From: Candidatus Dojkabacteria bacterium
Lineage (GTDB): Bacteria > Patescibacteriota > Dojkabacteria > SC72 > JAFGCJ01
Direction: 5' to 3'
Length of the DNA stretch: 64,000 nucleotides
Assembly: GCA_016929645.1 (NCBI GenBank)
Contig: JAFGIK010000003.1
Coordinates: forward strand, 6,913 to 70,912
The position numbers and the translations under genes are program-made. The notes beneath the pieces were generated by a model. The model made no database searches, was not told where the DNA came from, and saw nothing but the letters and a program-made list of their open reading frames with translations. Below are positions 6,890 to 44,110 of this stretch, one piece after another. The stretch's first letter is position 1, and each line of letters opens with the position of its first letter.

Positions 6890-6957
6890 TATTAGCCATT
6901 TACAAATATTTTTATGATATCATTGATAATATCATATATTAATCTCTTGAATAAATA

Positions 6958-7827: not shown

Positions 7828-7863
7828 TACTTCTTTCAAGAGAGGTTACGCTTTATTATTATT

Positions 7864-8727: not shown

Positions 8728-8824
8728 AGCAGCAGATTACTTAAAAATTATTATTGAAGAGTTTTATAATAAAAGCTTTCCGACAAATATATAAAAGTTG
8801 GGAAGCTTCTATTTTTTTTGTATT

Positions 8825-12465: not shown

Positions 12466-12527
12466 TCTTTGTTTTTGTGCTAGACTGCAATATTGCATTG
12501 CCAATATATTGATTTTTAGTTTGATAT

Positions 12528-13310: not shown

Positions 13311-13387
13311 TTATAATGATTGTCTTATGTACCAAGTTCTCCAAGCAAAGAAAACAATAATATTGTTATGATTTGAATCCTTAATCT

Positions 13388-15244: not shown

Positions 15245-15327
15245 AATCTAGTGTCTTCGCAGAGGTTATGTCAGTTTATCTGCTTCATTTCTAATACTAA
15301 AAAGGTATATAATGTTCACTCAACACA

Positions 15328-16575: not shown

Positions 16576-16652
16576 TTAAAATCTAGGAAATGGACTCAAT
16601 TTAGCTTTGATAAAATATTAGCAATTAATTCAAATTACTATTTTTATAAAAG

Positions 16653-28847: not shown

Positions 28848-28876
28848 TTGACGAAATAGGGGTTTCGCTTTACTAT
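28848..28876 (+). promoter_or_regulatory. sigma70-like promoter upstream of the pilus operon (TTGACG-17-TACTAT)
   Basis: -35 'ttgacg' 28848-28853, 17-nt spacer, -10 'tactat' 28871-28876, about 30 nt upstream of the REC gene ATG. Confidence 0.35.
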
Positions 28877-28906
28877 GGATATATATATTTTTGACTATTT
28901 TGAATT

Positions 28907-29290
28907 ATGCCTGGTGATAAGAAAAAAATCTTAATTGCAGAGGATGACAAATCGATTGCGATGGCATTGGAATTGAAGCTAAAGAACGTAGGATTTGATG
29001 TCACAGTTGCTAACGATGGCGCAGAGGCTGTCGAATATCTTTCCAAGACGACTTACGATCTTGCTCTATTAGATCTCATTATGCCAAGGAAAGATGGATT
29101 TACTGTTTTAGAAGAGGTTGATCCTAAAAAATTACAAACCCCAATAATTGTTCTTACAAATCTTAGCTCTCTTGAAGATGAAGAAAAGGCATTGAAATTA
29201 GGTGCGAAAGATTATTTTGTTAAGTCAAATATGAGTCTTTCTGAAATCGTAGATTATATCAATAGATTCTTCACGCATGAAAATAAATGA
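28907..29290 (+). CDS. stand-alone receiver (REC/CheY-like) response regulator
   Basis: 'KKILIAEDDKSIAMALELKLKNVGFDV', phospho-acceptor context 'DLALLDLIMPRKDGF', 'KLGAKDYFVK'. No output domain; 127 aa. Confidence 0.85.
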   Translation: MPGDKKKILIAEDDKSIAMALELKLKNVGFDVTVANDGAEAVEYLSKTTYDLALLDLIMPRKDGFTVLEEVDPKKLQTPIIVLTNLSSLEDEEKALKLGAKDYFVKSNMSLSEIVDYINRFFTHENK

Positions 29291-30989
29291 TAAGCAGATA
29301 ATTCAGATCCTTCTTGATGGCAATTATATACCCAAAGATGTAGTACCTGATGCAGAGAAATATGCAAAACATGAAGGTGCATCAATTATTGATTATCTTC
29401 TGACTCAGGGTATTTTAAATAAAGATTTGTTAGGCCAGGCAATTGCAGAATTTTATGGAATTCCTTACGCTGATATAAACTCGAATACTCCTACAAGAGA
29501 AACGGTCCTAAAGATTCCGGAAGAAATTGCCAAAAAATATAATGTAGTATTGTTTTCTGTTGATAAGGAAAAGGTTGTTTTTGCTACAGATTCTCCTGCT
29601 AAACCAGGGATTCTTGAGGAATTACAAAGCTATTTTGTAGATAAAGATGACGAAATAGCTCAGAAAGAATTTGCGCTCGCTTACTGTCTTGAGGAGGATA
29701 TCAAGCCTCTTTTTGTTCATTACCGAAAACCATTACAAACTCGATTTTCTGAAATATCAGCTGATGCGAAGTTAACTGCAGCCTCAGATCTTATAGATGA
29801 TATTGTTGATGACGCTTTGGCATACAAATCATCTGATATCCATTTTGAACCACAGAAAAAAGATGTGATTATAAGATTTCGAATTGATGGTATTTTAAGT
29901 GAAGCAGGAAGAATCTCAAAAGCAATCTATGAAAATATATTGAATCGGATAAAAGTGTTGGCAAAGCTTCGTATAGATGAACATTCTGCTGCCCAGGATG
30001 GTGCTATTCGTTATGAGAGAGAGGGTAAATCTGTTGATTTACGTGTATCCGTTGTCCCAATTTATGATGGTGAAAAAATCGCAATTCGTATTTTGTCGAC
30101 TTACATTCAAGGTTTTGGATTGAATGATATTGGTCTTGGACCTGTTCATCAAGATATTTTAACAAAGGCATCAATGAAACCTTTTGGTATGATTCTTGTA
30201 ACAGGACCAACAGGATCTGGAAAAACAACAACATTGTATTCAATACTGAAATCATTAAATTCTCCGGAACGGAATATCACAACAATTGAGGACCCAGTTG
30301 AATATAAAATCGCAGGTGTTAATCAGATACAGGTTAATTCTTTGACTAATCTTACTTTTGCAAAAGGCCTGAGGTCTATTGTCCGTCAGGATCCTGATGT
30401 TATCCTTGTTGGAGAGATTCGAGATGAAGAGACTGCCGAGATTAGTGTGAATGCTGCACTTACTGGGCATCTGCTGCTATCTACTTTTCATGCTAATGAT
30501 GCAGCAACGGCAATTCCTAGGTTAATTGATATGAATATTGAACCGTTCTTATTGTCTTCAACCTTGGAAGTAATAATTGCTCAAAGATTAGTTCGAACAA
30601 TTTGCGAAAAGTGTAGATACAGCTATGAAGTTAATATTGATGATCTTAAGCGAGATTATCCTCAAGCTGCATTTTATTTTAGCGGTAAGAAAACTAATCT
30701 CTATAAAGGTAAAGGTTGTGATAAATGTAATCATACTGGCTATAGCGGCAGAACGGCACTCTTTGAATTTATTGTTGGAAGCAGGACGCTCAGAGATTTA
30801 ATTTTATTGAACCCTTCAGCTCAACAAGTTTGGGATGCTGCGAAAAAGCAAGGTTCCATATCAATGTTTGAAGATGGAATGACTAAGGTAAAAAATGGAT
30901 TAACAACAATTGAAGAAGTTCTTCGTGTTGCAAATCCAGAAGAAATGTCACTATATGCCCCGAAAAAATCAAGAATCAAAAACAAGTAA
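29277..30989 (+). CDS. pilB: type IV pilus assembly ATPase PilB (GspE family)
   Basis: N-terminal T2SSE_N-like domain, Walker A 'VTGPTGSGKTTTLYSIL', 'ITTIEDPVEY', Asp/His boxes, tetracysteine 'CEKC...CDKC'. Overlaps the REC gene by 14 nt. Confidence 0.95.
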   Translation: MKINDKQIIQILLDGNYIPKDVVPDAEKYAKHEGASIIDYLLTQGILNKDLLGQAIAEFYGIPYADINSNTPTRETVLKIPEEIAKKYNVVLFSVDKEKVVFATDSPAKPGILEELQSYFVDKDDEIAQKEFALAYCLEEDIKPLFVHYRKPLQTRFSEISADAKLTAASDLIDDIVDDALAYKSSDIHFEPQKKDVIIRFRIDGILSEAGRISKAIYENILNRIKVLAKLRIDEHSAAQDGAIRYEREGKSVDLRVSVVPIYDGEKIAIRILSTYIQGFGLNDIGLGPVHQDILTKASMKPFGMILVTGPTGSGKTTTLYSILKSLNSPERNITTIEDPVEYKIAGVNQIQVNSLTNLTFAKGLRSIVRQDPDVILVGEIRDEETAEISVNAALTGHLLLSTFHANDAATAIPRLIDMNIEPFLLSSTLEVIIAQRLVRTICEKCRYSYEVNIDDLKRDYPQAAFYFSGKKTNLYKGKGCDKCNHTGYSGRTALFEFIVGSRTLRDLILLNPSAQQVWDAAKKQGSISMFEDGMTKVKNGLTTIEEVLRVANPEEMSLYAPKKSRIKNK

Positions 30990-32481
30990 TCTGCAAAGTA
31001 AGTCAAAAAACAAAGCAGATTTAAATAAAACTAAATCTAAAACAGCCTCAAAAGGTTTGTATTCCTATCATTTGTCAGATATTTTGTATATTTTCTCTAA
31101 GGGCAAGGAACGTGATTTCTTTGTAGAACAACTATCAATTCTTCTTTTGTCAGGAATGGATTTACTTGCTTCTTTGATGTCGATACGTGATGAGATGAAA
31201 TCAACGTATATGAAGAATGCGTTGTCGATTGTTGTTGAGGGAGTAGAGAATGGAGCCAGCCTGTGGCAATCGCTTGAGCGTGCCAATATACTTAATCCTC
31301 ATTTTATATCACTTGTTAAGATTGGTGAGAAATCTGGCAAATTGATTGATAATTTGAAAGTTATATCGCTTCAATATCAGAAGGATAAAATGTTTCAATC
31401 AAAGGTTTTGTCAGCGGTTATTTACCCGGCAATTGTTTTGGGTTTAACATTTGTTGTTGCTACTGTTTCTGTTGTCTTTATTCTTCCAAGAATTTCTTTA
31501 ACTTTTGGAAGAATGAATCTTGATTTGAATATTCTTACAAAGACCTTAATGGCAGTTGGGGATTTTGTCTCTGCTCATGGAATTATCGCTATTCCATCCT
31601 TTCTAATATTAACTGTGCTTATGATATATTTTATTTTCTTTTTTTCAAAGACGAAATTTATTGGTCAGTGGATTTTGATGATTTTACCAGGTATAAAAAG
31701 AATGATATTGGAAGTTGAGCTATCAAGGTTTGGTTATGTTGTAGGAACTTTGCTCGATTCTGGAGTTCCTATTGTTGATGTTCTTTCGTTTTTATCATCT
31801 GTTTCAAGCTATGAGGCATACAAGAAATTCTATCGATATCTCAAGGAAAGAGTAGAAAATGGTAATTCATTTAAAAAAGCTTTTTCATCGTATAAACATG
31901 TGGATAGATTATTGCCTTTATCTTTCCAGAACTTAATTATAACTGCAGAGCAAGGAGGAAATCTTTCATTGTCGCTAAAAAAAGTTGGCGAGATATATGA
32001 AGAAAAGCTTGACGTTACAACGAAAAACATGTCTGTAATATTGGAACCTATATTGCTGATTATTGTATGGTTAGGTGTTGTACTTGTCGCACTGGCTGTC
32101 ATTATGCCTATTTATACAATGATAGGAAATGTAGACACGCTTTCTGGTAGTAATACAAATTCCAGCACTGTGGAGACAAGAAATGAAGAAGAAACGCCTA
32201 TCCTGCAGGATGCTCCTGATTCTGAACAAACGACGAATGATGGATCTACCCAAGCTGATTCAGAATCAACAGAACAATTAACTGATACGAAACGCCTTAC
32301 AATACTTGAAACATCTACTGGTTACTTGAATGTTCGAAGTAGTCCTATGGGTGAGGTAATTGGTGAAGTCTATCCTGGTGAAATTTATGAGTATACAGAA
32401 GAACAATCTGGTTGGTACAAGATTGTTGTTTCAGATGAGCTTTCAGGGTGGGTCTCTTCTGAGTATGTTAGTTTATTATAG
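30955..32481 (+). CDS. pilC: type IV pilus platform protein PilC (GspF family) with C-terminal SH3b-like domain
   Basis: Two GspF repeats ('FVEQLSILLLSGMDLLASL', 'YVVGTLLDSGVPIVDVL') and 3 TMs. C-terminal S/T-rich linker then 'YLNVRSSPMGEVIGEVYPGEIYEYTEEQSGWYKIVVSDELSGWVSSEYV' (SH3b-like). Start uncertain: first in-frame ATG 30955 overlaps pilB by 35 nt; a non-ATG start after 30989 is possible. Confidence 0.85.
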   Translation: MPRKNQESKTSNLQSKSKNKADLNKTKSKTASKGLYSYHLSDILYIFSKGKERDFFVEQLSILLLSGMDLLASLMSIRDEMKSTYMKNALSIVVEGVENGASLWQSLERANILNPHFISLVKIGEKSGKLIDNLKVISLQYQKDKMFQSKVLSAVIYPAIVLGLTFVVATVSVVFILPRISLTFGRMNLDLNILTKTLMAVGDFVSAHGIIAIPSFLILTVLMIYFIFFFSKTKFIGQWILMILPGIKRMILEVELSRFGYVVGTLLDSGVPIVDVLSFLSSVSSYEAYKKFYRYLKERVENGNSFKKAFSSYKHVDRLLPLSFQNLIITAEQGGNLSLSLKKVGEIYEEKLDVTTKNMSVILEPILLIIVWLGVVLVALAVIMPIYTMIGNVDTLSGSNTNSSTVETRNEEETPILQDAPDSEQTTNDGSTQADSESTEQLTDTKRLTILETSTGYLNVRSSPMGEVIGEVYPGEIYEYTEEQSGWYKIVVSDELSGWVSSEYVSLL

Positions 32482-32492
32482 TCAGAATATCT

Positions 32493-32942
32493 ATGCTTAA
32501 AAGATTTTCCCGAAAAAACGGTTTTACTTTGATAGAGATATTACTTGTAATCTCTCTAATGGGAATTATTTTCATTATTATTACTGGTGTTGATAGATCT
32601 GCAATTATTAGGAACGATCTAATTGTAGCTTCGGATATGGTTGCATCGTCAATTCGTAGAGCGCAGTCTTTGTCTCAAGCTATGCAGCAAGATAGTCAGT
32701 GGGGAGTGAGGATAGTAAATAATCAAATTATTGTTTTTAAAGGTGACTCATATGATACACGGGATTCTATTTATGATGATGTGTATGAGGTTCCAAGTTC
32801 AATATCAATTTCTGGTTTAGATGAGATCATTTTTGCAAAATTGACTGGGGATCCTGATATTACGGGTAGTATTGTTCTAAATACTTCAATTAATCAATCA
32901 AATACCATATCAATAAATGAAAAAGGAATTGTCGATTATTAA
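32493..32942 (+). CDS. type IV pilin/pseudopilin (class III signal peptide)
   Basis: Prepilin motif 'RKNG|FTLIEILLVISLMGIIF' (G-1, E+5) followed by a small beta-rich head. Confidence 0.8.
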   Translation: MLKRFSRKNGFTLIEILLVISLMGIIFIIITGVDRSAIIRNDLIVASDMVASSIRRAQSLSQAMQQDSQWGVRIVNNQIIVFKGDSYDTRDSIYDDVYEVPSSISISGLDEIIFAKLTGDPDITGSIVLNTSINQSNTISINEKGIVDY

Positions 32943-35838
32943 AAAAAAATGTAAAAGTGGAGATGATGAAATACAAGTAAGAAACAATTCTGGATTTTCT
33001 ATTGTAGAAGTTATTGTTGGAATCTCTGTCTTTGCTATGATCTCGCTATCTCTTATAAGTGCGTTTATATTTGGGCAAGATTCTATTATCTATTCAGGGA
33101 AGAGAGCACGGGCTACATTTTTAGCACAGGAGGGGATCAACGCAGTAAAATCGATAAGCGGAAAATACTGGAATGTATTAGATTTTGATCAAACTGGTCT
33201 TGAAGCAAACTCAAATCAATGGACATTTCTTGGAGAAGGTACAACTGAAACAATTGGGGATTATCAACGAATAGTCTCTTTTCAAGAAGTTTGTCGTGAC
33301 ACCACGGATTTAATCGTTGATTGTCCGGGTGATTATGTAGATTTACATATGAAGAAAGTTACTGTCTCGATAACATGGCAAGAGCGTGGTATTGAGCAAC
33401 TTGTAGAACGTTCAGCATTAATCAGTACCTGGGATAGTTCAGAATGGAAAGAAGATACAGTGGATGATTTTAGCGATGGTATTTTTAGTGATACTGTTGT
33501 GTCGTCGTATACGGGGGACGGTAATGGTGCTGTATCGCTTGCGTCTACGGGTTTCCTTCCTGGTTGGGAGTGCATTATTCCGACTTATACCTCATATGAT
33601 CTTCCAACCAATAATGATTCTTTTGCGCTAGAAATATTAAGTGGCATTGCATATATTGGACAGGAAGGACTTTTTAGAACTGTTGATGTCTCAAATATTT
33701 CTGCTCCTGTAATTCTAGATACCATAGATGTTGGTGACAGGATAAATAATATCGTTGTTTCTAACGGTTATGCGTATCTTGCTTCAGATGCAAATTCCTC
33801 TGAACTAATTGTTGTAAATGTTAACAATCCTTCAAATCTCAGTATTGCTAGTATGTATGATGCTGACTCTCAGGTTGATGGTCTGGATGTTATTGTGTCT
33901 GGGAATCGTGCTTATCTTGGAACAAGTATCAATACTTCTGGAGGTGTAAGTCCGGAATTCTATATTCTTGATATTACGAATCCAAACTCTGTCACTCTTG
34001 CCAATCCAAATTCTTACTTTGATATGAATGGTTCATGGTCTGCGATTGCTCTTGTCGGTGATTATGTTCTTGTAGGGAGTGATATAAGTAGTTCTGAGCT
34101 TATGGTCCTTGATATATCAGATGAGTCAAATATTATTTTGGCTGGTACATTAGACTTACCTGGAAATCAAAATGTTACCGATCTTTCTGTAAAAGGAAAT
34201 ATTGCGTATGCTTCGCTCTTATCTGGTAACTTACTTTCGATTAATGTAAGTGATTTAAATAATATTTCTGTAATTCAAACACTTTCTTTATCAGGAGCAT
34301 CATTAAATAATGTTTATGTAACAGGGGAACTTGCATTTATTGGTTCAAATGATGGAACTAGCCAATTGTTCATAATTGATGTTAGTAATCCATATGGAAT
34401 GTCTATCAGAAATACGTTTAGTGCGGGAAGTGTTGTGCATTATGCGCATTTTTTTGGTAGCAATGTCTTTCTTGCTACGGGTAATAATGCAGGAGAGTTA
34501 ATGATTCTTTCAGCAACTACGAGTAGTTCATGGACTTGTGTGAATACTGTTGGCACAATTGATATCTCTGGAAATCTTGATGCTCAAAAAGTTTATGTTC
34601 GAAATTTTGGAGGAGTTGATGTTGCTTATATTGCCGCAAGTGATAATCAGATGTATCTATATAATGTTACTAATCCTGCAAGTCCTGTTCTTTTGGACAC
34701 TTTTAATCCAGGTGCAACAATATATGATTTTGTCATTTCTGAAAATTATATGTATCTGGCTACAGCTTCTAATACGAAAGAGTTGATTGTTGTTGATGTC
34801 TCTGACTCTTCGAATATTAGTGAAGTAGGATCATATGATTCCGCTGGGAATACTGATGGGTCTGCAGTCTGGATTAATGGAATAAACTTGTTTTTAGGAA
34901 CTAAAAGTAGCTCTAGTACCGAATTATATGTTTTGAATATTTCTGATCCAGCAAGTGTTCTCTTGGTGTCAGGATTTGAAGTTGGCTCAGATATTAACAG
35001 TATTGATGGTGACGGTAATTATTTATATCTTGGTACAAGTAATAACTCAAAAGAACTTACAATTCTTAACGTTCAAAATCTTTTGAGCATATCAGAGGTT
35101 GGGTCCCTTGATATAGCTAGTAATAATGATACTGTTGATATTGATTTTGATTTCGGATATGTTTATTTGGTTAACGGTAATGGAAATGTTATGTCAATAA
35201 TCAATGTTAATAATCCTTCAGCACCAAACCTTTCAAGTACTTATTCTGCTGGAGGCAGTACATATGGAGTCTTTGTTGCTGGTGATGAAGTTCACTTGTC
35301 AACAGCTGTTGCTGCCAGACAGCATCAGATAATTGATGTTTCGAATAAATCAATACCTGTTTTACTTGGAGAATATTCTACAGAGGGGAATACGAGTTTT
35401 GGATCATATTTATATAATGGTACTGTTTATATTGCTAACGCTAATAATGCTCGTGAAATTTATATGATTCAGCAGAAAAATGTGAGTAGCTCTGGGGGCT
35501 CAGGATATGTATTATCTGGAAGCTATATTTCTTCTCCTTTTTATACTATTGATGGAGTTTCATATCAAATCCTCGAGTGGGATGAAGCCATACCTGTTTG
35601 TTCAACACCTTGTACGATTCAAGTACAGATTCGAGTGGCAGATGATGTGGCTGGTAGTCCTGGTACTTGGTCTTCGTGGTATGGTGTAACTGGAGTCGAT
35701 ACATATTTCGATTTAAGTTCTGGAAATCTATTATCTGTTGATCTAAATAATTATCCTTGGGTTCAATATCAAGTTTCTTTCTCTGGAGATGGGATTGAAA
35801 CACCAGTATTATCAGAGATGCGAATTAGCTATTATTAA
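32917..35838 (+). CDS. giant pilin-like protein: prepilin N-terminus fused to LVIVD-repeat beta-propeller(s)
   Basis: 'NNSG|FSIVEVIVGISVFAMISL' class III signal. At least 10 LVIVD-like repeats ('NSSELIVVNVNNPSNLS', 'KELIVVDVSDSSNISEVGS', 'SELMVLDISDESNIIL', 'SQLFIIDVSNPYGMS'). Confidence 0.7.
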   Translation: MKKELSIIKKKCKSGDDEIQVRNNSGFSIVEVIVGISVFAMISLSLISAFIFGQDSIIYSGKRARATFLAQEGINAVKSISGKYWNVLDFDQTGLEANSNQWTFLGEGTTETIGDYQRIVSFQEVCRDTTDLIVDCPGDYVDLHMKKVTVSITWQERGIEQLVERSALISTWDSSEWKEDTVDDFSDGIFSDTVVSSYTGDGNGAVSLASTGFLPGWECIIPTYTSYDLPTNNDSFALEILSGIAYIGQEGLFRTVDVSNISAPVILDTIDVGDRINNIVVSNGYAYLASDANSSELIVVNVNNPSNLSIASMYDADSQVDGLDVIVSGNRAYLGTSINTSGGVSPEFYILDITNPNSVTLANPNSYFDMNGSWSAIALVGDYVLVGSDISSSELMVLDISDESNIILAGTLDLPGNQNVTDLSVKGNIAYASLLSGNLLSINVSDLNNISVIQTLSLSGASLNNVYVTGELAFIGSNDGTSQLFIIDVSNPYGMSIRNTFSAGSVVHYAHFFGSNVFLATGNNAGELMILSATTSSSWTCVNTVGTIDISGNLDAQKVYVRNFGGVDVAYIAASDNQMYLYNVTNPASPVLLDTFNPGATIYDFVISENYMYLATASNTKELIVVDVSDSSNISEVGSYDSAGNTDGSAVWINGINLFLGTKSSSSTELYVLNISDPASVLLVSGFEVGSDINSIDGDGNYLYLGTSNNSKELTILNVQNLLSISEVGSLDIASNNDTVDIDFDFGYVYLVNGNGNVMSIINVNNPSAPNLSSTYSAGGSTYGVFVAGDEVHLSTAVAARQHQIIDVSNKSIPVLLGEYSTEGNTSFGSYLYNGTVYIANANNAREIYMIQQKNVSSSGGSGYVLSGSYISSPFYTIDGVSYQILEWDEAIPVCSTPCTIQVQIRVADDVAGSPGTWSSWYGVTGVDTYFDLSSGNLLSVDLNNYPWVQYQVSFSGDGIETPVLSEMRISYY

Positions 35839-35849
35839 AATTATAAAAT

Positions 35850-36401
35850 ATGAGCGTTAGTAAACCAAAGCAAAAGAAAATAAACAAACAACGAATCTCA
35901 AATAATTTTGGGTTTACTCTAATTGAGACACTTGTGTATATTGCTTTATCTGCAATGATAACTGTTACCATTGTCTTATTTCTTTTGATGATTTTGGGTG
36001 GTCGACAGAGAGCAACAGCAATATCAGAAGTAGACAGTCTGGGCAATCAAATGATGTATCAGCTTGAGTACTCGATCAAAAATTCTGATGGAATAAATTC
36101 TCCATTGCCTGGAGCTTCTGAAGATTCATTGTCGCTAATCTTTGATGATCCTGAACAAAATCCTACGTATTATTATATTGATAATTCGGCACTTGTCGTG
36201 AGTGAAGCTGCTTTGGATTCTGTTAGTCTTACGTCATCAAGAGTTGTTGTCTCTGATGTTTCTTTTACAAATCTTACTCTGAGTAATTCTCCAACAATTA
36301 TAAAAATTCAATTCACAATTACATATAAGAACCCTGATAATCGCAAAGAGCTTGACTATTCTCGAACTTTTTATAATTCTGTATTAGTTAATAATTACTG
36401 A
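35850..36401 (+). CDS. pseudopilin/minor pilin
   Basis: 'NNFG|FTLIETLVYIALSAMITVTIVL' prepilin signal with E+5. Confidence 0.75.
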   Translation: MSVSKPKQKKINKQRISNNFGFTLIETLVYIALSAMITVTIVLFLLMILGGRQRATAISEVDSLGNQMMYQLEYSIKNSDGINSPLPGASEDSLSLIFDDPEQNPTYYYIDNSALVVSEAALDSVSLTSSRVVVSDVSFTNLTLSNSPTIIKIQFTITYKNPDNRKELDYSRTFYNSVLVNNY

Positions 36402-36402
36402 A

Positions 36403-36843
36403 ATGAAAACCTGTCCGACAAATAATAATGAAATAAAGAAATCTTTAAAATTTCCAAACAAGGGGTTTGTTATTTTATCTGCTGTTTTAATAATTGGAAT
36501 TATTTCTTTGTCTGTCACTGTTTCATTACTCTTTTCTGGAATAAATGCTGCCTTATCTGGGCTTACAATAAGTCAATCGTCACGTGCTTCTATTATGGCT
36601 GATACTTGCGCTCAGGAAGCAATGGAAAGAATTCGCAGAGATAGTACATACATTGGAAATGAAACCATTTCGATGGGTGAGGATTCATGCGAAATTCTTC
36701 CTGTTCAAGATCTAGGTGCAGAATCAAGACTGGTTCAAATTCAAGGGAATTCCGGGGAAGTTAATAGAAAGGTTGAGATAAGGATAAGTCAAATAGAACC
36801 AGAAATAAGGGTTGATTACTGGTATGAAGTTGCGGATTTTTAA
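36403..36843 (+). CDS. minor pilin-like protein (PilX-like; non-canonical, S at +5)
   Basis: 'NKG|FVILSAVLIIGIISLSVTV' hydrophobic N-terminus after a Gly, located in the pilin cluster. Confidence 0.5.
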   Translation: MKTCPTNNNEIKKSLKFPNKGFVILSAVLIIGIISLSVTVSLLFSGINAALSGLTISQSSRASIMADTCAQEAMERIRRDSTYIGNETISMGEDSCEILPVQDLGAESRLVQIQGNSGEVNRKVEIRISQIEPEIRVDYWYEVADF

Positions 36844-36864
36844 TATTTAGATAAGATAATAAAA

Positions 36865-39800
36865 ATGAATACGTTTAACTCAATACTTCCTGTGATAGCA
36901 ATTATTTGTGTGATGGCACTTCTAGGTTTGTTGTTCGGACAGAAAAAAAAGAATGCACAGGTTCTGAGTCTTATCGCTGCATTAAGTTCTTCTGTTATTT
37001 GGCTGATTTGTGATTTTATGCTGATAAATGTGTTTAATTTTATAAATCAGGCTTTACTTTACAAAGTCACATTAGTATTTGCTGCACTATCAATAATATT
37101 TCTTATGCACTTCTTCATTTCATATTCACGAGTGAAGATTTCGAGTTTTATCAAAGCTATTGTTATTATAATGTTTATATTTTTTGTGGTCATTGATTTA
37201 TTTACAGATACCATTGTAGCTGGTGTGGCAGAGAGTATTGAATTCGGTTCTCAAAACTATATTCCTGGGTCTTTGTATCTTTTGTATATTTTCATGATAA
37301 TGATTCCTCTGCTATCATCGGTTTTTCTGTTAATCAGGAATTATATATATGCCAGGAGAGAAGAAGATAAAAAGTTTTCTAGGATTATGTTTTTATCGAC
37401 GGTTGCTTTTGCTGGTGTTGTTTTTGTGAATTCGGTTATAGTGCCAATGTTTTCGATGCAATCTCCAAGAATTGTCAGTGTAGCTGTTATTTTTCTTGTA
37501 ATAGTATTGTTGATCAGTATTGTTAAGTGGAATATTCTAGGTGTCAGTCTCGGGTTACTTAGTGTTAAAACAAAGATTTTCTTTTCGATTTTTATATTTT
37601 GTCTCGGACTTTTTTCTGTATTGATTATTGTTGCGTATTTTGTATCAAACCTTGTTATGAAAAGTCAGTCCATGACGTTTATTGATCTTTTGTATAAGGG
37701 TAAAAATCAGGATATTGATAATTATGTTGAAAACTATGTTCGGGATATCAAAAAATTTTCGAGTGACGGTGAGATCGTGTTATATTCCAATTCTGATCAA
37801 ATGGTCAAGATTGCCAATTATATTTATAACTCAGATCTTGAAAGCAAGACTGTTGTTGACAAGCTTTCCCAAACAATAGGTGGAGTAGAATTGGTTGTTG
37901 ATAAAGACTTTGAAACAAATCAAATTATTGATTTAAATAGGGCATGGAATAGTTCGTATTGCTGGCATGTTTGTGAAGTAACCGACAATGATCTTAACTT
38001 CTTCCAAGGTGATAGCTATATTGCTCAAAATGGGGAGTTGAGCCAGTGTCTAATTGAATCAATGAGCTCTTGCAACGTATATAGTAACCTTGGTGAATGG
38101 ACATTTAGAAATAACAATGCATATAAGATCGATCCTGTTAATAATTTATATACCAGTATTTTTGTTAGCAAAACTGATGATAATAAGCTTATTTTTCTTA
38201 CGTCAAACGCATATCTGTCATTTGATTCTGATTCACTCTATGCATACGATGATCAAAACACCTTTGCTAACAATCTTGATGAAATTTACGATGTGAAAGA
38301 TACAATGGTTTTCGATGTTGATGGAACTGTTGATTGGTCTTTGAACCATAAATATCTTATTAACGAAAATGTTAATTCAAATATCATAGATAGCAATTTT
38401 TGGCCACAGTTTATTTCAGATGTTGTAAATTCGAAAGAATCAATAATCCAGGTCAATTCTTATATTGATGGAGACTTCAGTGATGTCTTTGTTATTGGGT
38501 ACCCGATTGTTCGTGATGATAGAGTCGTTAAGATAATTGCTGTTGTAGAAGATACCCAGGAAATTGAAAATATTATTGCTCAAAATTTTGATGAAAGAGA
38601 TGATTTGGCAATATATCTCTTAAATTCAGATGGATCAATGCTTTATTCTTCCAGTAATAGATTTATCTCCCATGGGTATGATAAATCAGATATCAATGAA
38701 TTCAGTTGTGATATTGATAGCGATGTGTCGAGTAATCAATATTCTCGTTCTGGTGATCGAATATGGGGTATTTGCGGATTCGATTCAATATTAAATACTT
38801 ATCTCATTATTGAATATCGATTGTCGTTGTCATTTTTAGGCCCATCTTGGTCTGCTTATGTGATGATACTTTTTATATCTGTTGCTTCGCTTTGTATATC
38901 TTCGCTTTCTAATTTTATTGGAAATTATATCTCTGCTCCGATCAAAGATCTGGAAAATGGATGCAAGAAATTATTGAAAGGCGACTTCAGTCATGAATTC
39001 AAAAGTGATTCACAAGATGAAATTGGACAATTGTATCAGTCTTTTGGCAAGTTATCTGGATATATTCACCAAACGCAAGACGAGATAAACGCAAAGATTA
39101 AAGAACAAACAAGATATATTGAGAATCAGAAGAATGAGCTTGAAAATAATCAAAAAGAATTATCATTACTTCTTAAAAATGTTCAAACTGAAAAGGTCAA
39201 AGCACTGAAGGAGAGAAACACAATGAATGCTATCCTGTTCAGCATTGGTGACGGAGTTTTTGTAATTGACCAACATTTCAAGATAGTGATGTTTAACAAA
39301 AAAGCAGAAGATATTTCAGGCTTTAGTTTGGATGATGTTTTAGGGAAGCGTTACGATGAAGTGCTAAAGTTTCTTTTTGAGAAAAGTCGTTCGGTGAATG
39401 ACAATTTTATAAAAAATGCTATATCAGCTAAGGGTGGTAAATATGTAGACGAACCTACTGTTTTAATAAAAAAGAATGGTACAGAAATAGCTGTTTCTAA
39501 TAGTGCGGCTCCAATAAAAAATAAAGCTGGGAAAAAAATTGGATATGTTATTGTATTTCGTGATGTATCAAGGGAGCGTGAAGTTGATAGGATGAAATCA
39601 GAGTTTGTCTCTGTTGCTTCTCATCAGTTGCGAACTCCATTAACTGGGATGAAATGGTATATTGAGCTTTTGGCGGGAAATAATGCAGATAAGCTTAATA
39701 ACGAGCAGATGGATTTTATAAGAAATATTCGTGATAACAATGAGCGAATGATTTCTCTGGTTGATGATTTATTAAATGTTACACGAGTTGAATCAAATAA

Positions 39801-40275
39801 AAACTTTGAAATAAAGAGGAAGAAGGTTGATGTTGTTAGTATTCTTGATAAAGTTTTAAAAATTCAAAATGTTATCGGAACTATAAATAAAGTGAAAGTA
39901 TCTCTTGATTCCAGTATTCCTGAAGAATGTGTATTAAATGTCGATCCTGATAAAATCTTCGAAGTATTTAATAATGTAATTAATAATGCTGTTAAATATT
40001 CGAGGGAGAATGGAATTGTTCTTGTTGGAATGAAGGAAGATTCGAAGACTGTAACCTTTTGGATAAAAGACCGTGGTTATGGTATACCAAAGGATGTTCA
40101 AAAAAGAATATTTACACAATTTTTTAGGGCGGAAAATGTTATCAAGAGGGCCACTGAGGGAACTGGTCTTGGATTATACATCGTGAAGTCAATAATGGAT
40201 GCTCATTGTGGAAAAGTGTATTTTAAGTCCGTTGAAAATAAAGGTTCAACTTTTTTCTTGAGCTTTACAAAATAG
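36865..40275 (+). CDS. large membrane sensor histidine kinase (multi-TM N-terminus, extracytoplasmic domain, PAS, HisKA, HATPase_c)
   Basis: At least 7 N-terminal TMs, ~400-aa extracytoplasmic region, second TM, coiled coil, PAS-like region. H-box 'VSVASHQLRTPLTGM', N-box 'NVINNAVKYS', G-boxes 'DRGYGIP', 'GTGLGLYIVKSIM'. No REC domain. Confidence 0.85.
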   Translation: MNTFNSILPVIAIICVMALLGLLFGQKKKNAQVLSLIAALSSSVIWLICDFMLINVFNFINQALLYKVTLVFAALSIIFLMHFFISYSRVKISSFIKAIVIIMFIFFVVIDLFTDTIVAGVAESIEFGSQNYIPGSLYLLYIFMIMIPLLSSVFLLIRNYIYARREEDKKFSRIMFLSTVAFAGVVFVNSVIVPMFSMQSPRIVSVAVIFLVIVLLISIVKWNILGVSLGLLSVKTKIFFSIFIFCLGLFSVLIIVAYFVSNLVMKSQSMTFIDLLYKGKNQDIDNYVENYVRDIKKFSSDGEIVLYSNSDQMVKIANYIYNSDLESKTVVDKLSQTIGGVELVVDKDFETNQIIDLNRAWNSSYCWHVCEVTDNDLNFFQGDSYIAQNGELSQCLIESMSSCNVYSNLGEWTFRNNNAYKIDPVNNLYTSIFVSKTDDNKLIFLTSNAYLSFDSDSLYAYDDQNTFANNLDEIYDVKDTMVFDVDGTVDWSLNHKYLINENVNSNIIDSNFWPQFISDVVNSKESIIQVNSYIDGDFSDVFVIGYPIVRDDRVVKIIAVVEDTQEIENIIAQNFDERDDLAIYLLNSDGSMLYSSSNRFISHGYDKSDINEFSCDIDSDVSSNQYSRSGDRIWGICGFDSILNTYLIIEYRLSLSFLGPSWSAYVMILFISVASLCISSLSNFIGNYISAPIKDLENGCKKLLKGDFSHEFKSDSQDEIGQLYQSFGKLSGYIHQTQDEINAKIKEQTRYIENQKNELENNQKELSLLLKNVQTEKVKALKERNTMNAILFSIGDGVFVIDQHFKIVMFNKKAEDISGFSLDDVLGKRYDEVLKFLFEKSRSVNDNFIKNAISAKGGKYVDEPTVLIKKNGTEIAVSNSAAPIKNKAGKKIGYVIVFRDVSREREVDRMKSEFVSVASHQLRTPLTGMKWYIELLAGNNADKLNNEQMDFIRNIRDNNERMISLVDDLLNVTRVESNKNFEIKRKKVDVVSILDKVLKIQNVIGTINKVKVSLDSSIPEECVLNVDPDKIFEVFNNVINNAVKYSRENGIVLVGMKEDSKTVTFWIKDRGYGIPKDVQKRIFTQFFRAENVIKRATEGTGLGLYIVKSIMDAHCGKVYFKSVENKGSTFFLSFTK

Positions 40276-40302: not shown

Positions 40303-40617
40303 TTACACCGACCATGGAATTGATGAAATTTTTATTAAAAGACTCTTATTATCGTCTGGAGCAATGATATTAAAGACTAATTGTTTACATTTCTGACATT
40401 TATAAACGATTTGATCTTTTTGATTTTTTATTCGAAATCCAATAGGAATAAGTGTACCTTTACATGGATTTAGTCTATCACCAGGGTTAATATCAACATG
40501 AAGTGAATGTAGGCAGTAGTTACAATGGTCGCGACAACTATGCGGATGTTTATAAACAGTCTTGCCGCAGTTTGTACATATAAATTCTTCATTTCTCACT
40601 ACGAAATTTTGACTCAT
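40303..40617 (-). CDS. RNHCP-domain-like zinc-finger protein
   Basis: 'FICTNCGKTVYKHPHSCRDHCNYCLHSLH' and 'YKCQKCKQ' give a Cys/His cluster with a RDHC(N)YC core resembling the RNHCP domain. Confidence 0.45.
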   Translation of the reverse strand: MSQNFVVRNEEFICTNCGKTVYKHPHSCRDHCNYCLHSLHVDINPGDRLNPCKGTLIPIGFRIKNQKDQIVYKCQKCKQLVFNIIAPDDNKSLLIKISSIPWSV

Positions 40618-40636
40618 TGTGCTAGTATAAAATATT

Positions 40637-42052
40637 ATGAAAATTAGTGAAACTGTCCAATCAAGAAAGCAACCACTGAAAACTGTCTTTTGGGTCCTAT
40701 TTATTGCTGTTTTCGTTTCAGGAATCTGGTATTTATCTACTTTACCTGTATGGTCAAAAACAGATTATGATTTTGCTGTTACGAAAGAATTTTCTAATGA
40801 ACTTGAAACGGATAACGTTAATATCTATTTTCAGGGGGAAACTTATGATCTTGAAGATTTAGGAGTGGAGATCAAACCTGTTGAAGTTTCGATAAGTCAA
40901 AAGATTAAAGGTTTGTTTAGTAAAACATCATATTATGAAATAGCTGTTGATGACGAGGTGTTTCTTAGCAAAATTGAACAATTCAATAACGAATTTGGTA
41001 CTGAGCCAGTAAATTCCCAGCTTTATGTTGATAAAAAAGGAGATTTACAGATATCTGAATCATCTAGCGGAACTAAATATGTTGCCTCTGATATAAAAGA
41101 GGTTCTCGTTAATTCAATAAAAAGTGAATCTTCAAAGATCTATATTGTTCCAGAGACGGTTTTTCCTACCATAACCAAAGAGTCTCTTGCTGATGATTTA
41201 CAAATTCTTAATTATCTTACCAAACCTATTATTATTACAGGTGATGGCTCAACGCTTGTATTAACTCGAGAGCTTTTAATTTCATTTTGGAATTTAGAAT
41301 GTACAAGTGAAAGTGTAGACCAGGATATTGATAATACAAATGATACTCAGGTGTCATTAAATGTTTGTGTACAAAAAGATGTTGTGTCTTCGACTGTTAT
41401 TCCGATGTTAAATGATTTATATAATGATATTCTAAATAGCAAAAAAACAGTCAAAAACCATAATGGTAGTTTTGAGTATCGTACTTGTGATTATGGTCCT
41501 GACCTTGATCTCATAATTTCAGATTTAACAAACCTTCTCGAACGGCGTTTAGCATTGCTTAATGAATATAATGGAAGGATTGATGAAAGTAGGCTAATTG
41601 GTAATGATACGATAACTGTATCATTCATTGACCTTCCAGGAACTGATGGAACTTATGTAACAAGATATATTGAAATTGATCAAACTCAACAAAAGATGTA
41701 CTTATGGCAGGATGGTCAGCTATATAAATCATACGGAATTTCTGGATCTTACGATGATTACGCTGTGTATGGCGTTTATTCTGTCATGAATAAATCAACA
41801 AATGCATGGTCTGATGTTGCAAAAAAATGGATGCCATACTGGATGGCATATTATTATGATCCGAGGCAAAAGGCTATGCTTGGTATACATGAGCTGGTTT
41901 GGTGGGATGATGAAAATGGTGTACGACATGTTGAACCTTCTTCTAATATTGGTACTCCTAAAAGTACAGGATGTATACGTCTCGATAGAGGCGCTGCAAA
42001 GGAAGTTTATGATTGGGCTGAGATTGGAACGCCAATACTTATCCACCCATGA
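40637..42052 (+). CDS. membrane-anchored L,D-transpeptidase (YkuD) domain protein
   Basis: N-terminal TM. C-terminal 'LGIHELVWWDDENGVRHVEPSSNIGTPKSTGCIRLDRGAAKEVYDW' carries the catalytic His...Gly-Cys-x-Arg motif of LDTs. Confidence 0.8.
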   Translation: MKISETVQSRKQPLKTVFWVLFIAVFVSGIWYLSTLPVWSKTDYDFAVTKEFSNELETDNVNIYFQGETYDLEDLGVEIKPVEVSISQKIKGLFSKTSYYEIAVDDEVFLSKIEQFNNEFGTEPVNSQLYVDKKGDLQISESSSGTKYVASDIKEVLVNSIKSESSKIYIVPETVFPTITKESLADDLQILNYLTKPIIITGDGSTLVLTRELLISFWNLECTSESVDQDIDNTNDTQVSLNVCVQKDVVSSTVIPMLNDLYNDILNSKKTVKNHNGSFEYRTCDYGPDLDLIISDLTNLLERRLALLNEYNGRIDESRLIGNDTITVSFIDLPGTDGTYVTRYIEIDQTQQKMYLWQDGQLYKSYGISGSYDDYAVYGVYSVMNKSTNAWSDVAKKWMPYWMAYYYDPRQKAMLGIHELVWWDDENGVRHVEPSSNIGTPKSTGCIRLDRGAAKEVYDWAEIGTPILIHP

Positions 42053-42139
42053 TATGGATTTAGCAAATCAAAATATTTATATCCTTTTTCATAATTAATA
42101 TGTTAAAATTATAAATATAAAATTTAACCCGATATTTTA

Positions 42140-42313
42140 ATGACTTTATCAAAAGAATGGTTAATGGTCTCAAGTAATCTGCGAGCTCTTGCTCGAGCTG
42201 CTGATGAAGCTGCTGATGATGAATTAACACCATTTCAAATGCAAAAGTACTTTCGTGAGCTTGAGGAATGTGTTAATACTCTTGAAAGTCTTGTTCGCCG
42301 ATATTCTAAGTAG
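42140..42313 (+). CDS. unannotated small ORF (57 aa), predicted helical/coiled
   Basis: ATG...TAG frame 'MTLSKEWLMVSSNLRALARAADEAADDELTPFQMQKYFRELEECVNTLESLVRRYSK'. Below the 60-aa track cutoff; locally GC-richer than flanks; sits upstream of pspC. Confidence 0.3.
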   Translation: MTLSKEWLMVSSNLRALARAADEAADDELTPFQMQKYFRELEECVNTLESLVRRYSK

Positions 42314-42348
42314 GCCAAACATTATCTATTATCTGAAAAAAGTACTTT

Positions 42349-42876
42349 TTGCCCTTATTTCTAAACGTTTACTTAATTTTATTTTTAACTTATATGTCAG
42401 ATGTTGAATCTCAAAAGAAAAATCAACGGATTTATCGATCTGAGACGAACAAAGTAATTGCAGGTGTATGTGGTGGTCTTGGCGAGTTCTTTAATATCGA
42501 TCCTGTTATTATTCGTTTAATTTTCGTTCTTATGGTCTTGTTTGGTGGTAGTGGTATGTTAATCTACTTAATTATGTGGATCATTGTTCCTCTAAAGTCC
42601 AGTGTATCTCAAAGTACAGAAGCGACGATTAAGCAAAATGCTAAAGAATTTGAAAATAAAGCTAAGAAAGCAGCGGTTGATCTTGAAAAAACAGTGAAGA
42701 AAACAGATACAAAATTATGGTTCGGATTGATCATTTTATTTCTTGGATTCTTCTTTTTATTACAGAACTTTGGTATAAACTTAAATCCATTTAGGTTCAT
42801 TAATTTTTCAATATTATGGCCGATACTTATCATTTTCCTTGGTATATTAATTGTTATTAAGAAAAACGATGACTGA
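42349..42876 (+). CDS. PspC-domain membrane protein
   Basis: 'RIYRSETNKVIAGVCGGLGEFFNIDPVIIRLIFVLMVLFG' is the canonical PspC domain, followed by TMs. Confidence 0.8.
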   Translation: MPLFLNVYLILFLTYMSDVESQKKNQRIYRSETNKVIAGVCGGLGEFFNIDPVIIRLIFVLMVLFGGSGMLIYLIMWIIVPLKSSVSQSTEATIKQNAKEFENKAKKAAVDLEKTVKKTDTKLWFGLIILFLGFFFLLQNFGINLNPFRFINFSILWPILIIFLGILIVIKKNDD

Positions 42877-44110
42877 AAATAAATCAAAATCTTCGAAAAA
42901 AACTCAAAAATCTGACACCAAAAAAGTGAATGCAAAGAAGAATAAAACAATTCATAAGTCAGATAAAACCCGTCCAGTTTCTTCAGAAGCAGGATCGACT
43001 GAATCTCCATCTGCTAATCAGGCACAATCGGGAAATAGTAATTCTGAACAGAGTAAGTGTCGTCGTTCTGGTGGAGGGTCAATTTTTTGGGGAGGCTTGT
43101 TCATATTTATCGGCGCTATATTTTTACTCAATACACTGGGGTTATTATCCTGGTCGGTATGGTCTGTACTGTGGAGACTATGGCCAATCCTCTTGATATT
43201 AATTGGTATGCAAGTGATTTTGGGGAGGAGTTGGATAGGGAGATTACTTGTAGGATTAATCAGCTTGAGTATTTTTGCTTTAATTGCAATTATTGCTATT
43301 GCTGCTTTGGACTCAAGATTTAATAACTGGCTTGGAAACAGATTGAAATTCTGGAATGATCATGGTGAAAGTATTATTGATACCTGGGATAATGTAACTA
43401 CAGGAAATAAACTGAAAGATAGATTTACTGTTGCTAAAAATGATTACGATGGAGTTGATGAACTCAATGTCGATATATCGGTAGGTGAAGGGGAGTTCGA
43501 TTTAGGTAACTCAGGAGACGAGTATTTGATTGTTGATTCATCTTATTACAAAAATGTCGGAGTGCCAAAAATTAGAACAGAAAAGAATAATGATTCTCTG
43601 GATATAAAGTTCTGGACCGAAAAAAACATATCATCAGGGATGATTGATAGTCCTTATTATGATATTTCTCTTGGTAAAAATGAATTGGCAACAAATTTAA
43701 ATGTTGATCTTGGTGCTGGATCAGGTGATATATCTTTTAGCAAGTTGAACATAAAGGATTTTAATCTGGATATCGGTATGGGTTCTTGTAGTGTAGATTT
43801 GTCCCAAACGGATGTTAATTCAATGGATATTAGTATTGGTATGGGTTCTGCAGAGATGGAACTAGACGAAGAGTCAATTCCTGTTAATACAAGTACCGTT
43901 GAGATCGGTGCAGGATCGTTATCTATGGATGTTCCTGAGCGTGTAGGAATTAAAGTAATTTATAATATTGGACTTGGCTCTCTTGAAGTTGGAGGCAAAA
44001 CACTTACTGGGGATGGATCATATAAGACAAATAATTTTGATGATGCAAAAATTCAACTAGTTCTTAATGTAGATATTGGTACAGGAAGTATTGAAATTGA
44101 ACGAAGTTAG
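42851..44110 (+). CDS. DUF4097/LiaF-like membrane protein (beta-helical 'putative adhesin' domain)
   Basis: N-terminal K/S-rich region, 3-4 TMs, then repetitive 'DIS(V/I)G(M/E)GS..(V/M)DL' strands typical of DUF4097/LiaF C-terminal domains. Commonly paired with PspC-domain genes. Confidence 0.55.
   Translation: MLLRKTMTENKSKSSKKTQKSDTKKVNAKKNKTIHKSDKTRPVSSEAGSTESPSANQAQSGNSNSEQSKCRRSGGGSIFWGGLFIFIGAIFLLNTLGLLSWSVWSVLWRLWPILLILIGMQVILGRSWIGRLLVGLISLSIFALIAIIAIAALDSRFNNWLGNRLKFWNDHGESIIDTWDNVTTGNKLKDRFTVAKNDYDGVDELNVDISVGEGEFDLGNSGDEYLIVDSSYYKNVGVPKIRTEKNNDSLDIKFWTEKNISSGMIDSPYYDISLGKNELATNLNVDLGAGSGDISFSKLNIKDFNLDIGMGSCSVDLSQTDVNSMDISIGMGSAEMELDEESIPVNTSTVEIGAGSLSMDVPERVGIKVIYNIGLGSLEVGGKTLTGDGSYKTNNFDDAKIQLVLNVDIGTGSIEIERS

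Follow-up and report, generated by a model that had tools for sequence, protein, structure and literature searches.

Background

In Xanthomonas oryzae pv. oryzicola, the single-domain response regulator EmvR binds PilB, the extension ATPase of the type IV pilus, and lowers its ATPase activity; EmvR depends on its residues Asp-15, Asp-59 and Thr-87 (PMC11973254). In X. campestris, the REC-only tandem regulator DrdR binds both PilB and PilT and raises their activity (PMC13507683). The PatA-type regulators of Synechocystis (PixG and PixE) bind PilB1 and the N-terminal domain of PilC; the output of PixE is its PATAN domain and not its REC, and CheY-type regulators did not bind the motor (bioRxiv 10.1101/2021.06.11.447907). 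The present work concerns a locus in which a receiver lacking an output domain is encoded together with the pilus motor: in a 64,000-nt stretch (termed here the window) of a contig from Candidatus Dojkabacteria (Patescibacteria, the candidate phyla radiation), the gene of a stand-alone receiver, REC1, overlaps pilB, and a sensor histidine kinase is encoded at the far end of the same run of pilus genes. We lean, with some reserve, towards a joint explanation in which the locus is the motor and tip-complex module of a type IVa-like pilus, and a dedicated HisKA kinase acts upon a REC-only regulator, which in turn would control the extension motor through protein-protein contact.

Pilus genes are also subject to transcriptional regulation, as exemplified by PilR, which has AAA+ and HTH domains and, as a sigma54 activator of the NtrC type, governs the transcription of pilA. 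Nearly all Patescibacteria possess type IV pili, and cultivated Saccharibacteria bind their hosts via pili. In the saccharibacterium TM7x, which has the pili T4P-1 and T4P-2, binding to the host requires PilX2, a minor pilin with a beta-propeller (PMC11623550). When searched by term, the same study yields no response regulator, histidine kinase or two-component system, and it calls the regulation of extension and retraction open (PMC11623550). No two-component system linked to pilB in Patescibacteria was found in a literature search of incomplete coverage, nor is a regulator of this sort mentioned in a review of PilB cofactors from 2024.

Results

The pilus operon and its stand-alone receiver

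A sequence-only reading of the window had proposed an operon in the order REC-only regulator, pilB, pilC, pilins and histidine kinase. This order was borne out by the coordinates of the open reading frames (ORFs) and by Pfam and NCBIfam annotation, which place eight genes, all on the + strand, as follows:

28907..29290, + strand: REC1, receiver-only response regulator, 127 aa, with PF00072 (aa 8-117, E=3e-24) as its sole Pfam domain
29277..30989, + strand: PilB-type extension ATPase, 570 aa, with an MshEN-like N-domain and T2SSE (E=4.5e-119)
30955..32481, + strand: PilC platform protein, with two T2SSF domains (PF00482 in two stretches, E=2e-43) and a C-terminal SH3_3 domain
32493..32942, + strand: minor pilin, GspH/FimU/ComGD-like, 149 aa, with the class III signal GFTLIE
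32917..35838, + strand: giant minor pilin, 973 aa, with N_methyl and LVIVD repeats
35850..36401, + strand: minor pilin, 183 aa, with the class III signal GFTLIE
36403..36843, + strand: pilin-like protein, 146 aa, with a hydrophobic N-terminal segment and no Glu5
36865..40275, + strand: sensor histidine kinase, 1136 aa, with HAMP, PAS, HisKA (E=1e-16) and HATPase_c (E=3e-22)

The intergenic spacing within the operon ranges from -35 to +21 nt and the gene that follows the kinase is convergent, so that the genes from REC1 to the kinase are likely, judging from this layout, to form a single transcription unit.

The acidic pocket and phospho-site residues of REC1 (D13, D14, D56, T84 and K106) are intact, and their equivalents are conserved in all of the pilB-proximal receivers. 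The REC1 stop codon overlaps the pilB start by 14 nt (...CAT GAA AAT AAA TGA in the frame of REC1 against ATG AAA ATA AAT GAT in that of pilB), and this pilB start agrees with the N-terminal consensus of the homologues. The description of the regulator as REC-only, phospho-competent and tightly coupled to pilB is thus upheld. Its designation as CheY-like holds for the architecture but not for the lineage, since the best matches are receivers of the OmpR/WalR lineage, and the nearest solved receivers are 6ont, YycF/WalR, CtrA and RR468 (3dge, E=8e-17). The family to which REC1 belongs is marked by the motif LSNL(S/G)QEED..A..LGA.DY.VKS.

Conservation of the cassette in relatives

The arrangement was followed in 168 loci (labelled L###; P#### denotes homologous proteins), which were collected by scanning genomes and metagenomes and by looking up exact proteins. 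In 164 loci the ORFs were called mechanically and searched with the REC, PilB, PilC and kinase core of the window; for L166-L168, called genes and Pfam annotations were returned with the look-ups. The clade of the window PilB was delimited by a score of at least 410 bits, and a receiver was counted if a REC-only ORF of 118-139 aa lay at most 400 nt upstream on the same strand. A REC-only gene was thereby found directly upstream of pilB in 21 of the 26 window-clade loci (18 of 23 once identical PilBs had been removed), but in only 2 of the 106 loci with other PilBs (Fisher p=1.2e-17). Those 106 loci come from Firmicutes, Actinobacteria, Omnitrophota and other groups, and include eight of the nine that are labelled Saccharibacteria or Saccharimonadales; the ninth, L002, belongs to the window clade. 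Of the five exceptions within the clade, L005 exhibits the order HK-REC-pilC (HK, histidine kinase).

Wherever PilB is at least 55% identical to that of the window, the receiver is upstream (10/10 contexts); the labels of these lineages are Dojka-, Lipton-, Jackson- and Buchananbacteria and Saccharimonadales. The three annotated loci, from Jacksonbacteria, Buchananbacteria and one more lineage, all have the order REC-pilB-pilC. Some labels of metagenome-assembled genomes may be wrong, such as "Gammaproteobacteria" for L006, L007 and L010. The spacing between REC and pilB is from -14 to +41 nt in most loci, and no member of the window clade has pilT adjoining pilB. The flanking genes vary from locus to locus; the cassette itself is therefore the conserved unit.

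A kinase on the same strand is present in at least 18 of 27 distinct cassettes. It lies immediately 5' of the receiver (HK-REC-pilB) in L004, L008, L089, L094, L098, L096, L086 and L081, and at the 3' end, after the pilins, in the window and in L083, L084, L085, L001, L002 and L166. Regardless of their position, these pilus-linked kinases share a common PAS-HisKA-HATPase core, which scores 200-257 bits against the window kinase, and a distinctive H-box, ASHQLRTPL...W..E.LL., whereas the PilS-like kinases found beside pilC in other phyla (L022 and L066) score 62 and 44 bits. The sensor parts are not conserved, and extend from none at all (the soluble kinases of 371-409 aa in L084, L085 and L166) to the 1136-aa form with nine transmembrane (TM) segments. 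The closest cassettes carry a second REC-only gene after the 3' kinase or overlapping it (L001:16095-18765, L084:16959-18516 and L085:9483-11097), which is not present in the window.

Conservation of the receiver and kinase genes with the pilus genes, which had been set beforehand as a test, thus held across many lineages of Patescibacteria. The kinase had been regarded as an orphan, which it probably is not, since a kinase with the same core sits as HK-REC-pilB in sister lineages and the divergences of receiver and kinase co-vary.

Two further arrangements were observed. One, in which a REC-only gene of 130 aa lies between pilB and pilT or pilC (L104:9639-14142, L110:4053-7278 and L119:3917-7417), belongs to a PilB clade further removed from that of the window (about 37-39% identity); its receiver has the motif LTNL(S/G)Q..(D/E) in common with the receiver family of REC1. 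The Buchananbacteria contig L167 carries, 8 kb upstream of REC-pilB-pilC, a second pilus cluster (positions 1-3566), composed of PilM, a 271-aa MshEN/T2SSE protein, another REC-only gene, an unknown gene and PilD.

Co-variation of receiver, kinase and motor

The divergences of the encoded proteins were compared by partial Mantel tests over 16 non-redundant loci, with 5000 permutations. The receiver co-varies with the kinase when PilB is held constant (r=0.62, p=2e-4) and when PilC is held constant (r=0.56, p=2e-4). It also co-varies, more weakly, with PilB given the kinase (r=0.49, p=4e-4) and with PilC given PilB (r=0.38, p=0.003), and the correlation between kinase and PilB given the receiver is nil (r=0.00, p=0.49). 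A receiver that bridges kinase and motor would be expected to give such a pattern. The pattern supports the pairing of kinase and receiver as well as the role of the receiver as the link to the motor genes, and does not tell PilB and PilC apart. The operon kinase is thus the probable cognate kinase of REC1, as far as can be judged from gene and protein sequences.

The motor and platform proteins

The Walker A and B motifs, the Asp box and the tetracysteine zinc motif (two CxxC pairs) of PilB are intact according to regular-expression searches, and its His box, LTGHLLLSTFHAN, was identified by reading the sequence. PilB aligns over its full length to TIGR02538 (PilB of type IVa pili) with 467 bits, which is below the equivalog cut-off of 675. 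Its best solved relatives are Thermus PilF, GspE and the PilB proteins of Geobacter and Myxococcus. The best 120 relatives are about 60% identical, and those with source names are mostly from Patescibacteria.

The machine had earlier been likened to a competence pilus. This does not agree with the full-length alignment of PilB to the PilB/PilF of type IVa pili, nor with the ComGA model, which gave 253.5 bits against a cut-off of 300 and covered only aa 175-440; a ComG competence pilus was rejected on these scores. The ComGB model gave 116 bits against 240, and the matches to ComGD, ComGE and ComGF were far below their cut-offs. The model scores, together with the T4a-type major pilin in the cassettes of relatives, led to the rejection of both the competence-pilus and the type II secretion readings.

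The N-domain of PilB was also examined for the 24-residue MshEN motif for cyclic di-GMP (c-di-GMP), reportedly described by Wang et al. in 2016, which was scored as a tandem of RLGxx(L/V/I)(L/V/I)xxG(L/V/I)(L/V/I)xxxxLxxxLxxQ with a strict and a loose regular expression. Neither the window PilB nor any of the 26 REC-adjacent PilBs in the collected loci contains the motif. It was found in 17 of 116 other PilBs and is missing in the remaining 99, so that its absence from the REC-linked PilBs is a weak argument for complementarity with c-di-GMP.

The pilC ORF opens at a TTG codon at 30910, yet the ATG at 30955 is the likelier start. A linker rich in S, T, D and E, followed by a bacterial SH3_3 domain (aa 472-521, E=9e-12), occupies aa ~410-523 of PilC (32200-32481). 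By the known topology of PilC/GspF, this C-terminal position would be outside the membrane, and the domain perhaps anchors the platform to the cell wall. The PilC proteins of L084, L085 and L166 are likewise long (488-528 aa), and SH3_3 was recorded for those of L084 and L166.

The histidine kinase and its sensor

The catalytic motifs of the kinase were located at H920 (SHQLRTP), the N box at 1035, G1 at 1069, the F box at 1083 and G2 at 1099. Hydropathy and positive-inside analysis gave an N-out topology, in which TM1-7 (aa 7-221) and TM8 (238-256) are followed by an ectodomain (257-654) and by TM9 (660-681) before HAMP. The sequence-only reading had described an N-terminus of seven or more TM segments with an extracytoplasmic domain of about 400 aa, which is in keeping with the eight TM segments, the ectodomain and the ninth TM segment observed. 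It had also proposed a domain search of this N-terminus as a check, and the searches, when run, pointed to a HisKA_7TM-like module (TM1-7) and a Cache-type ectodomain.

The ectodomain (aa 257-654) has no Pfam match in the window protein itself. A word-indexed protein search with this region (37633-38829), which is rich in N, D and S, returned no matches at all, not even the query; since the same protein was found by exhaustive search, the negatives of indexed searches with low-complexity queries are not to be trusted. The exhaustive search, conducted with aa 1-700 against 1.84 billion representatives, recovered the protein itself and, besides it, no more than 26 relatives, which are weak and align mainly in the TM region. 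Among the eight of these N-terminal relatives that were scanned, dCache_1 appears in seven (the exception being P0136) and HisKA_7TM at E<=1e-4 in five; HAMP, HisKA and HATPase_c appear in all eight, and PAS in seven.

An AlphaFold2 model of aa 257-700 is poor, with a mean predicted local distance difference test score (pLDDT) of 57.5, reaching 70-89 in the proximal module and less than 50 in the distal one. Its best matches in the PDB by Foldseek are nevertheless dCache sensors (KinD, McpH, Tlp3, DctB, Mlp24 and PctB), the top ones with E=4e-7 to 1e-5 and a TM score of about 0.5 on the target, as obtained with a model of low pLDDT. The modelled ectodomain is thus most likely a divergent, enlarged dCache domain. 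The kinase had been thought to sense contact with a surface or a host; the dCache-like character of the modelled ectodomain suggests instead that the ligand may be a small molecule. The input of the kinase is lineage-specific, since related cassettes employ soluble, PAS-only kinases.

The pilin-like proteins

Four pilins had been described in the operon. Pilin-like genes are indeed present, yet all are minor, and the major pilin of the relatives is absent. Three of the ORFs have prepilin motifs of the N_methyl/GFTLIE type, and the fourth pilin-like protein is the one that lacks Glu5. The cassettes of relatives hold a conserved gene resembling T4a-type major pilins (GFTLLEILLVVAAIAILAGIVIIAINPGK...) before the kinase, which has no counterpart in the window. 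All four window pilins are thus minor or tip pilins, and the window encodes the motor, the platform and a tip or priming complex, but not the fibre subunit.

The first pilin (149 aa) shares 41% identity with its counterpart at the first pilin position of L081, a relative from Dojkabacteria. In the giant minor pilin, the pilin helix and head (aa 29-170) are followed by a disordered linker, by tandem beta-propellers made up of LVIVD repeats (~220-853) and, at the C-terminus, by a beta-sandwich. Its AlphaFold2 model, with a mean pLDDT of 82 and some 630 residues of beta-propeller, matches the tandem-propeller proteins PorZ, the glycan-sensing BT4663 and Utp21 by Foldseek. Full-length homologues exist, and the sole one with a named source is labelled Patescibacteria. 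This 973-aa protein is likely to be the tip adhesin. The 146-aa pilin-like protein has no match in Pfam or NCBIfam, and ORFs of about 130 aa in which no pilin motif was detected occur at the equivalent position in relatives; judging from its position, it would take the place of GspK/PilX in the minor-pilin set.

The protein encoded at the second pilin position differs by lineage, and carries fn3, an LVIVD propeller or Laminin_G_3 in a length of 462 to 1204 aa. The large minor pilins of relatives are found at L083:13193-14737, L084:13597-15492, L166:13736-15124 and L168:13347-16961. This suggests that the extracellular module of the tip adhesin is swapped rapidly between lineages.

Genomic setting

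Exactly one REC, one histidine kinase, one PilB-like ATPase and one PilC were found by phmmer in the 64 kb of the window; this single PilB-family ATPase leaves no PilT within it. Pfam scans of the other 40 large ORFs revealed no PilM, PilN, PilO, PilQ or PilD and no DNA-binding regulator. The absence of secretin and alignment genes and of pilT from the window, as noted in the sequence-only reading, is consistent with these scans. The scanned ORFs of the window also contain no CheA-type (HPt, P5), methyl-accepting chemotaxis protein (MCP) or CheW domains, and no PilZ, GGDEF or EAL protein was detected in the window by Pfam.

The 10 kb past the 3' end of the window likewise hold no DNA-binding regulator, PilT, PilM, PilN, PilO, PilQ, PilD or chemosensory protein, and in the combined 74 kb there is no HPt domain and no second REC. 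A conventional output-domain regulator had been reported as missing near the kinase, and indeed none lies within at least 23 kb on either side. The major pilin, PilD, PilM, PilN, PilO and PilT, absent from the window and from the 10 kb 3' of it, are presumably encoded elsewhere in the genome.

An operon promoter had been proposed before REC1, at the following position:

28848..28876, + strand: sigma-70-like hexamer pair TTGACG-17-TACTAT, in the 81-nt gap before REC1, with a 9/12 match to the consensus

This match is at the level of chance, as 58 such matches occur in the region compared to 58.1 +/- 7.9 in shuffled sequence, and the promoter, though possible, has no statistical support. The scan of the region for consensus elements and terminators yielded no convincing terminator 3' of the kinase gene.

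Immediately after the kinase, positions 40303-44110 encode an RNHCP zinc-ribbon protein, whose gene is convergent, a YkuD L,D-transpeptidase, a protein with a PspC domain and one that resembles LiaF. The genes are of the envelope-stress type, without LiaS or LiaR, and are not kept beside the kinase in relatives. The LiaF and PspC genes were considered as the true partners of the kinase and rejected, their adjacency to it not being conserved.

The other large ORFs of the window code for glycosyltransferases, SecA, large proteases, PFOR, envelope-stress-type proteins and similar products. Three of them encode very large proteins that are probably secreted or located in the envelope:

8825-11482, - strand: S8 subtilase, 885 aa
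18727-21894, - strand: protein with CBM96, Ig-like and M23 peptidase domains, 1055 aa
57176-60694, + strand: trypsin-like protease, 1172 aa

These may be tools for attacking the host cell wall. Positions 1-17000 and 49861-52778 are dense in glycosyltransferases and methyltransferases, and include a UDP-glucose dehydrogenase fragment and a Bac_transf priming transferase; the clusters, which flank the pilus operon, look like surface polysaccharide or glycosylation loci.

Discussion

Proposed mechanism and alternative explanations

In the mechanism that we favour, the membrane kinase, with its eight TM segments, dCache-like ectodomain, HAMP and PAS, would bind a lineage-specific extracellular ligand and autophosphorylate on H920, and the phosphoryl group would pass to D56 of REC1. 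The overlapping stop and start codons would cause REC1 to be made in step with PilB. Phosphorylated REC1 would then contact the extension motor (PilB, possibly with PilC) and gate the assembly of the pilus, either by activation or by inhibition, and the four minor pilins would prime the fibre and set the tandem-beta-propeller adhesin at its tip. Action by protein-protein contact is proposed because REC1 has no output domain and would be produced in step with PilB. Control of the motor is further supported by the position of the receiver, which keeps its place by pilB or between the motor genes across deep lineages. The lack of the c-di-GMP motif in PilB, a motif through which many PilBs are regulated, the absence of any output-domain regulator from the 64 kb plus 10 kb, and the precedents of EmvR and DrdR point the same way.

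Several observations weigh against this mechanism. The partial Mantel test is known to be liberal with related sequences; REC and PilB show no significant co-variation once PilC is held constant (r=0.13, p=0.15), and the mirror-tree correlation between REC and the N-domain of PilB, given its C-domain, shows no signal beyond phylogeny (r=-0.005). It may be, therefore, that PilC is the contact of the receiver, or that the signal is phylogenetic. No natural REC-PilB fusion was found among the PilB homologues. The only clearly longer close homologue, P0094 (683 aa), was examined as a possible fusion and rejected, as its extension is of low complexity, rich in K and E, and contains no REC. Many relatives (L001, L084, L085 and L081) have a second REC beside the kinase, which could be the true substrate of the kinase or an additional one. 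The inventory of regulators covers 64 kb plus 10 kb, and a DNA-binding regulator elsewhere in the genome is possible. Finally, the sample of loci is neither random nor a complete census; the genome scan with the PilB profile gave at least 15 loci of Patescibacteria.

REC1 might instead be a phosphate sink or relay that only tunes phosphate flux, the real output being a DNA-binding regulator or a second REC encoded elsewhere that acts on transcription in the manner of PilS-PilR. Cassettes with two REC-only genes are common among relatives (L001, L084, L085, L081, L096 and L006) and recall the sink arrangements of PilG/PilH and CheY, and the genome beyond the 64 kb and the adjoining 10 kb could hold such an output regulator. 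The window, however, has one REC, and the 74 kb contain no HPt, second REC or DNA-binding regulator. Moreover, a pure sink needs no fixed place by pilB, as seen in 21/26 loci of the clade, or between pilB and pilT or pilC, and the PilSR-type kinase and NtrC-type regulator of other phyla (L022, L066) are distinct proteins. We thus consider this explanation unlikely. A different objection concerns the target: the two-component system may be co-transcribed with the pilus genes and yet be directed at the envelope, the cell wall or another machine, in which case the linkage would reflect co-expression. The envelope genes just downstream (YkuD transpeptidase, PspC-domain and LiaF-like proteins), the resemblance of the kinase core to WalK, PhoR and PnpS, and the nil co-variation of REC with the PilB N-domain speak for such a target. 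Nevertheless, the downstream genes are not kept beside the kinase in relatives, the invariant neighbour of REC1 is pilB, or else pilC or pilT, and the correlations of REC with PilB given the kinase (r=0.49) and with PilC given PilB (r=0.38) are significant, which renders this possibility quite improbable.

It could also be argued that the 3' kinase does not pair with the 5' receiver; the kinase would then be a true orphan with a regulator encoded elsewhere, and REC1 would receive its phosphate from another kinase or from acetyl phosphate. The two genes are 7.6 kb apart, at opposite ends of the operon, and in L001, L084 and L085 the 3' kinase has its own adjacent second receiver. Against this stand the kinases of the same core and the same H-box directly 5' of REC1 in L004, L008, L089, L094, L098, L096 and L086, the co-variation of receiver and kinase given PilB or PilC (r=0.62 and 0.56, p=2e-4), and the occurrence of only one kinase and only one REC in the 64 kb. 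Such a lack of partnership is hardly probable.

Should phospho-control of the motor by REC1 be correct, a broader and more tentative proposal may be put forward, namely that the cassette is a phylum-wide, hard-wired attachment switch of episymbiotic Patescibacteria. An OmpR/WalR-lineage receiver that has lost its DNA-binding domain, co-translated with PilB, might bind the PilB/PilC motor once phosphorylated by the operon kinase, and thereby start or stop extension. The kinase core would be conserved, while the sensor (8TM and dCache here, soluble PAS elsewhere) and the tip adhesin (LVIVD propellers, fn3 or laminin-G) would be swapped, such that the host cue and the host adhesin that are coupled would be particular to each lineage. 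Where no PilT is linked, it is even conceivable that the switch makes PilB alternate between extending and retracting the pilus.

The conserved cassette provides a concrete hypothesis for how episymbionts with reduced genomes decide when to deploy their attachment pili. Transcription factors seem to be few in the episymbiotic Patescibacteria, and nothing here points to an input of c-di-GMP at PilB. If the proposed mechanism is true, direct action on PilB by output-less regulators would extend from the unlinked "orphan" genes of Xanthomonas to an operon-encoded system of many lineages; if the mechanism is transcriptional or that of a phosphate sink, the locus would be an ordinary operon-linked two-component system.

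Comparison with known systems

The system described here is not PilSR, Pil-Chp, PatA-type regulation, c-di-GMP/MshEN control or a ComG pilus, although it shares features with several of these. As in PilS-PilR of Pseudomonas, Geobacter and Myxococcus, a membrane histidine kinase and a regulator are encoded with pilB and pilC, an arrangement also seen in L022 and L066. The receiver of the window, however, is a 127-aa protein without an output domain, and the PilS-like kinases score 44-62 bits compared to 200-257 for the pilus-linked kinases of Patescibacteria. Small receivers steer pili in Pil-Chp as well (PilG/PilH), and the cassettes of many relatives hold two RECs; yet Pil-Chp employs a CheA-type kinase, MCPs and CheW, none of which is found in the window, where a HisKA kinase and a receiver of the OmpR/WalR lineage occur instead. 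The PatA-type regulators differ in their PATAN domain, for which REC1 has no room, as REC fills aa 8-117 of its 127 residues. The MshEN-type N-domain of the window PilB recalls the c-di-GMP control exerted through MshEN, PilZ and FimX, but this PilB lacks the c-di-GMP motif and the window has no PilZ, GGDEF or EAL protein. The pair HK853-RR468 of Thermotoga maritima likewise consists of a HisKA/HATPase kinase and a receiver-only regulator of about 120 aa, and RR468 is among the closest solved sequences to REC1; to our knowledge, this pair has no pilus link, and we know of no output for RR468.

With regard to the pilus itself, the closest functional analogue is that of TM7x, which is also a type IV pilus of Patescibacteria with a large propeller minor pilin, represented here by a protein of 973 aa with tandem propellers. 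The Saccharibacteria differ in that eight of the nine loci labelled Saccharibacteria or Saccharimonadales, with PilBs that are 36-39% identical, have no REC, the exception being L002 (55%). With regard to its regulation, the pathway would appear, by analogy, to work most like EmvR and DrdR, with which it shares an output-less receiver tied to the pilus motor ATPase, here through gene linkage and weak co-variation. The Xanthomonas regulators are encoded by "orphan" genes unlinked to pilB, in diderm proteobacteria that possess PilZ/FimX/c-di-GMP and Pil-Chp control, whereas the receiver of the present locus overlaps pilB, has an in-operon kinase with lineage-specific sensors and is conserved across Patescibacteria.

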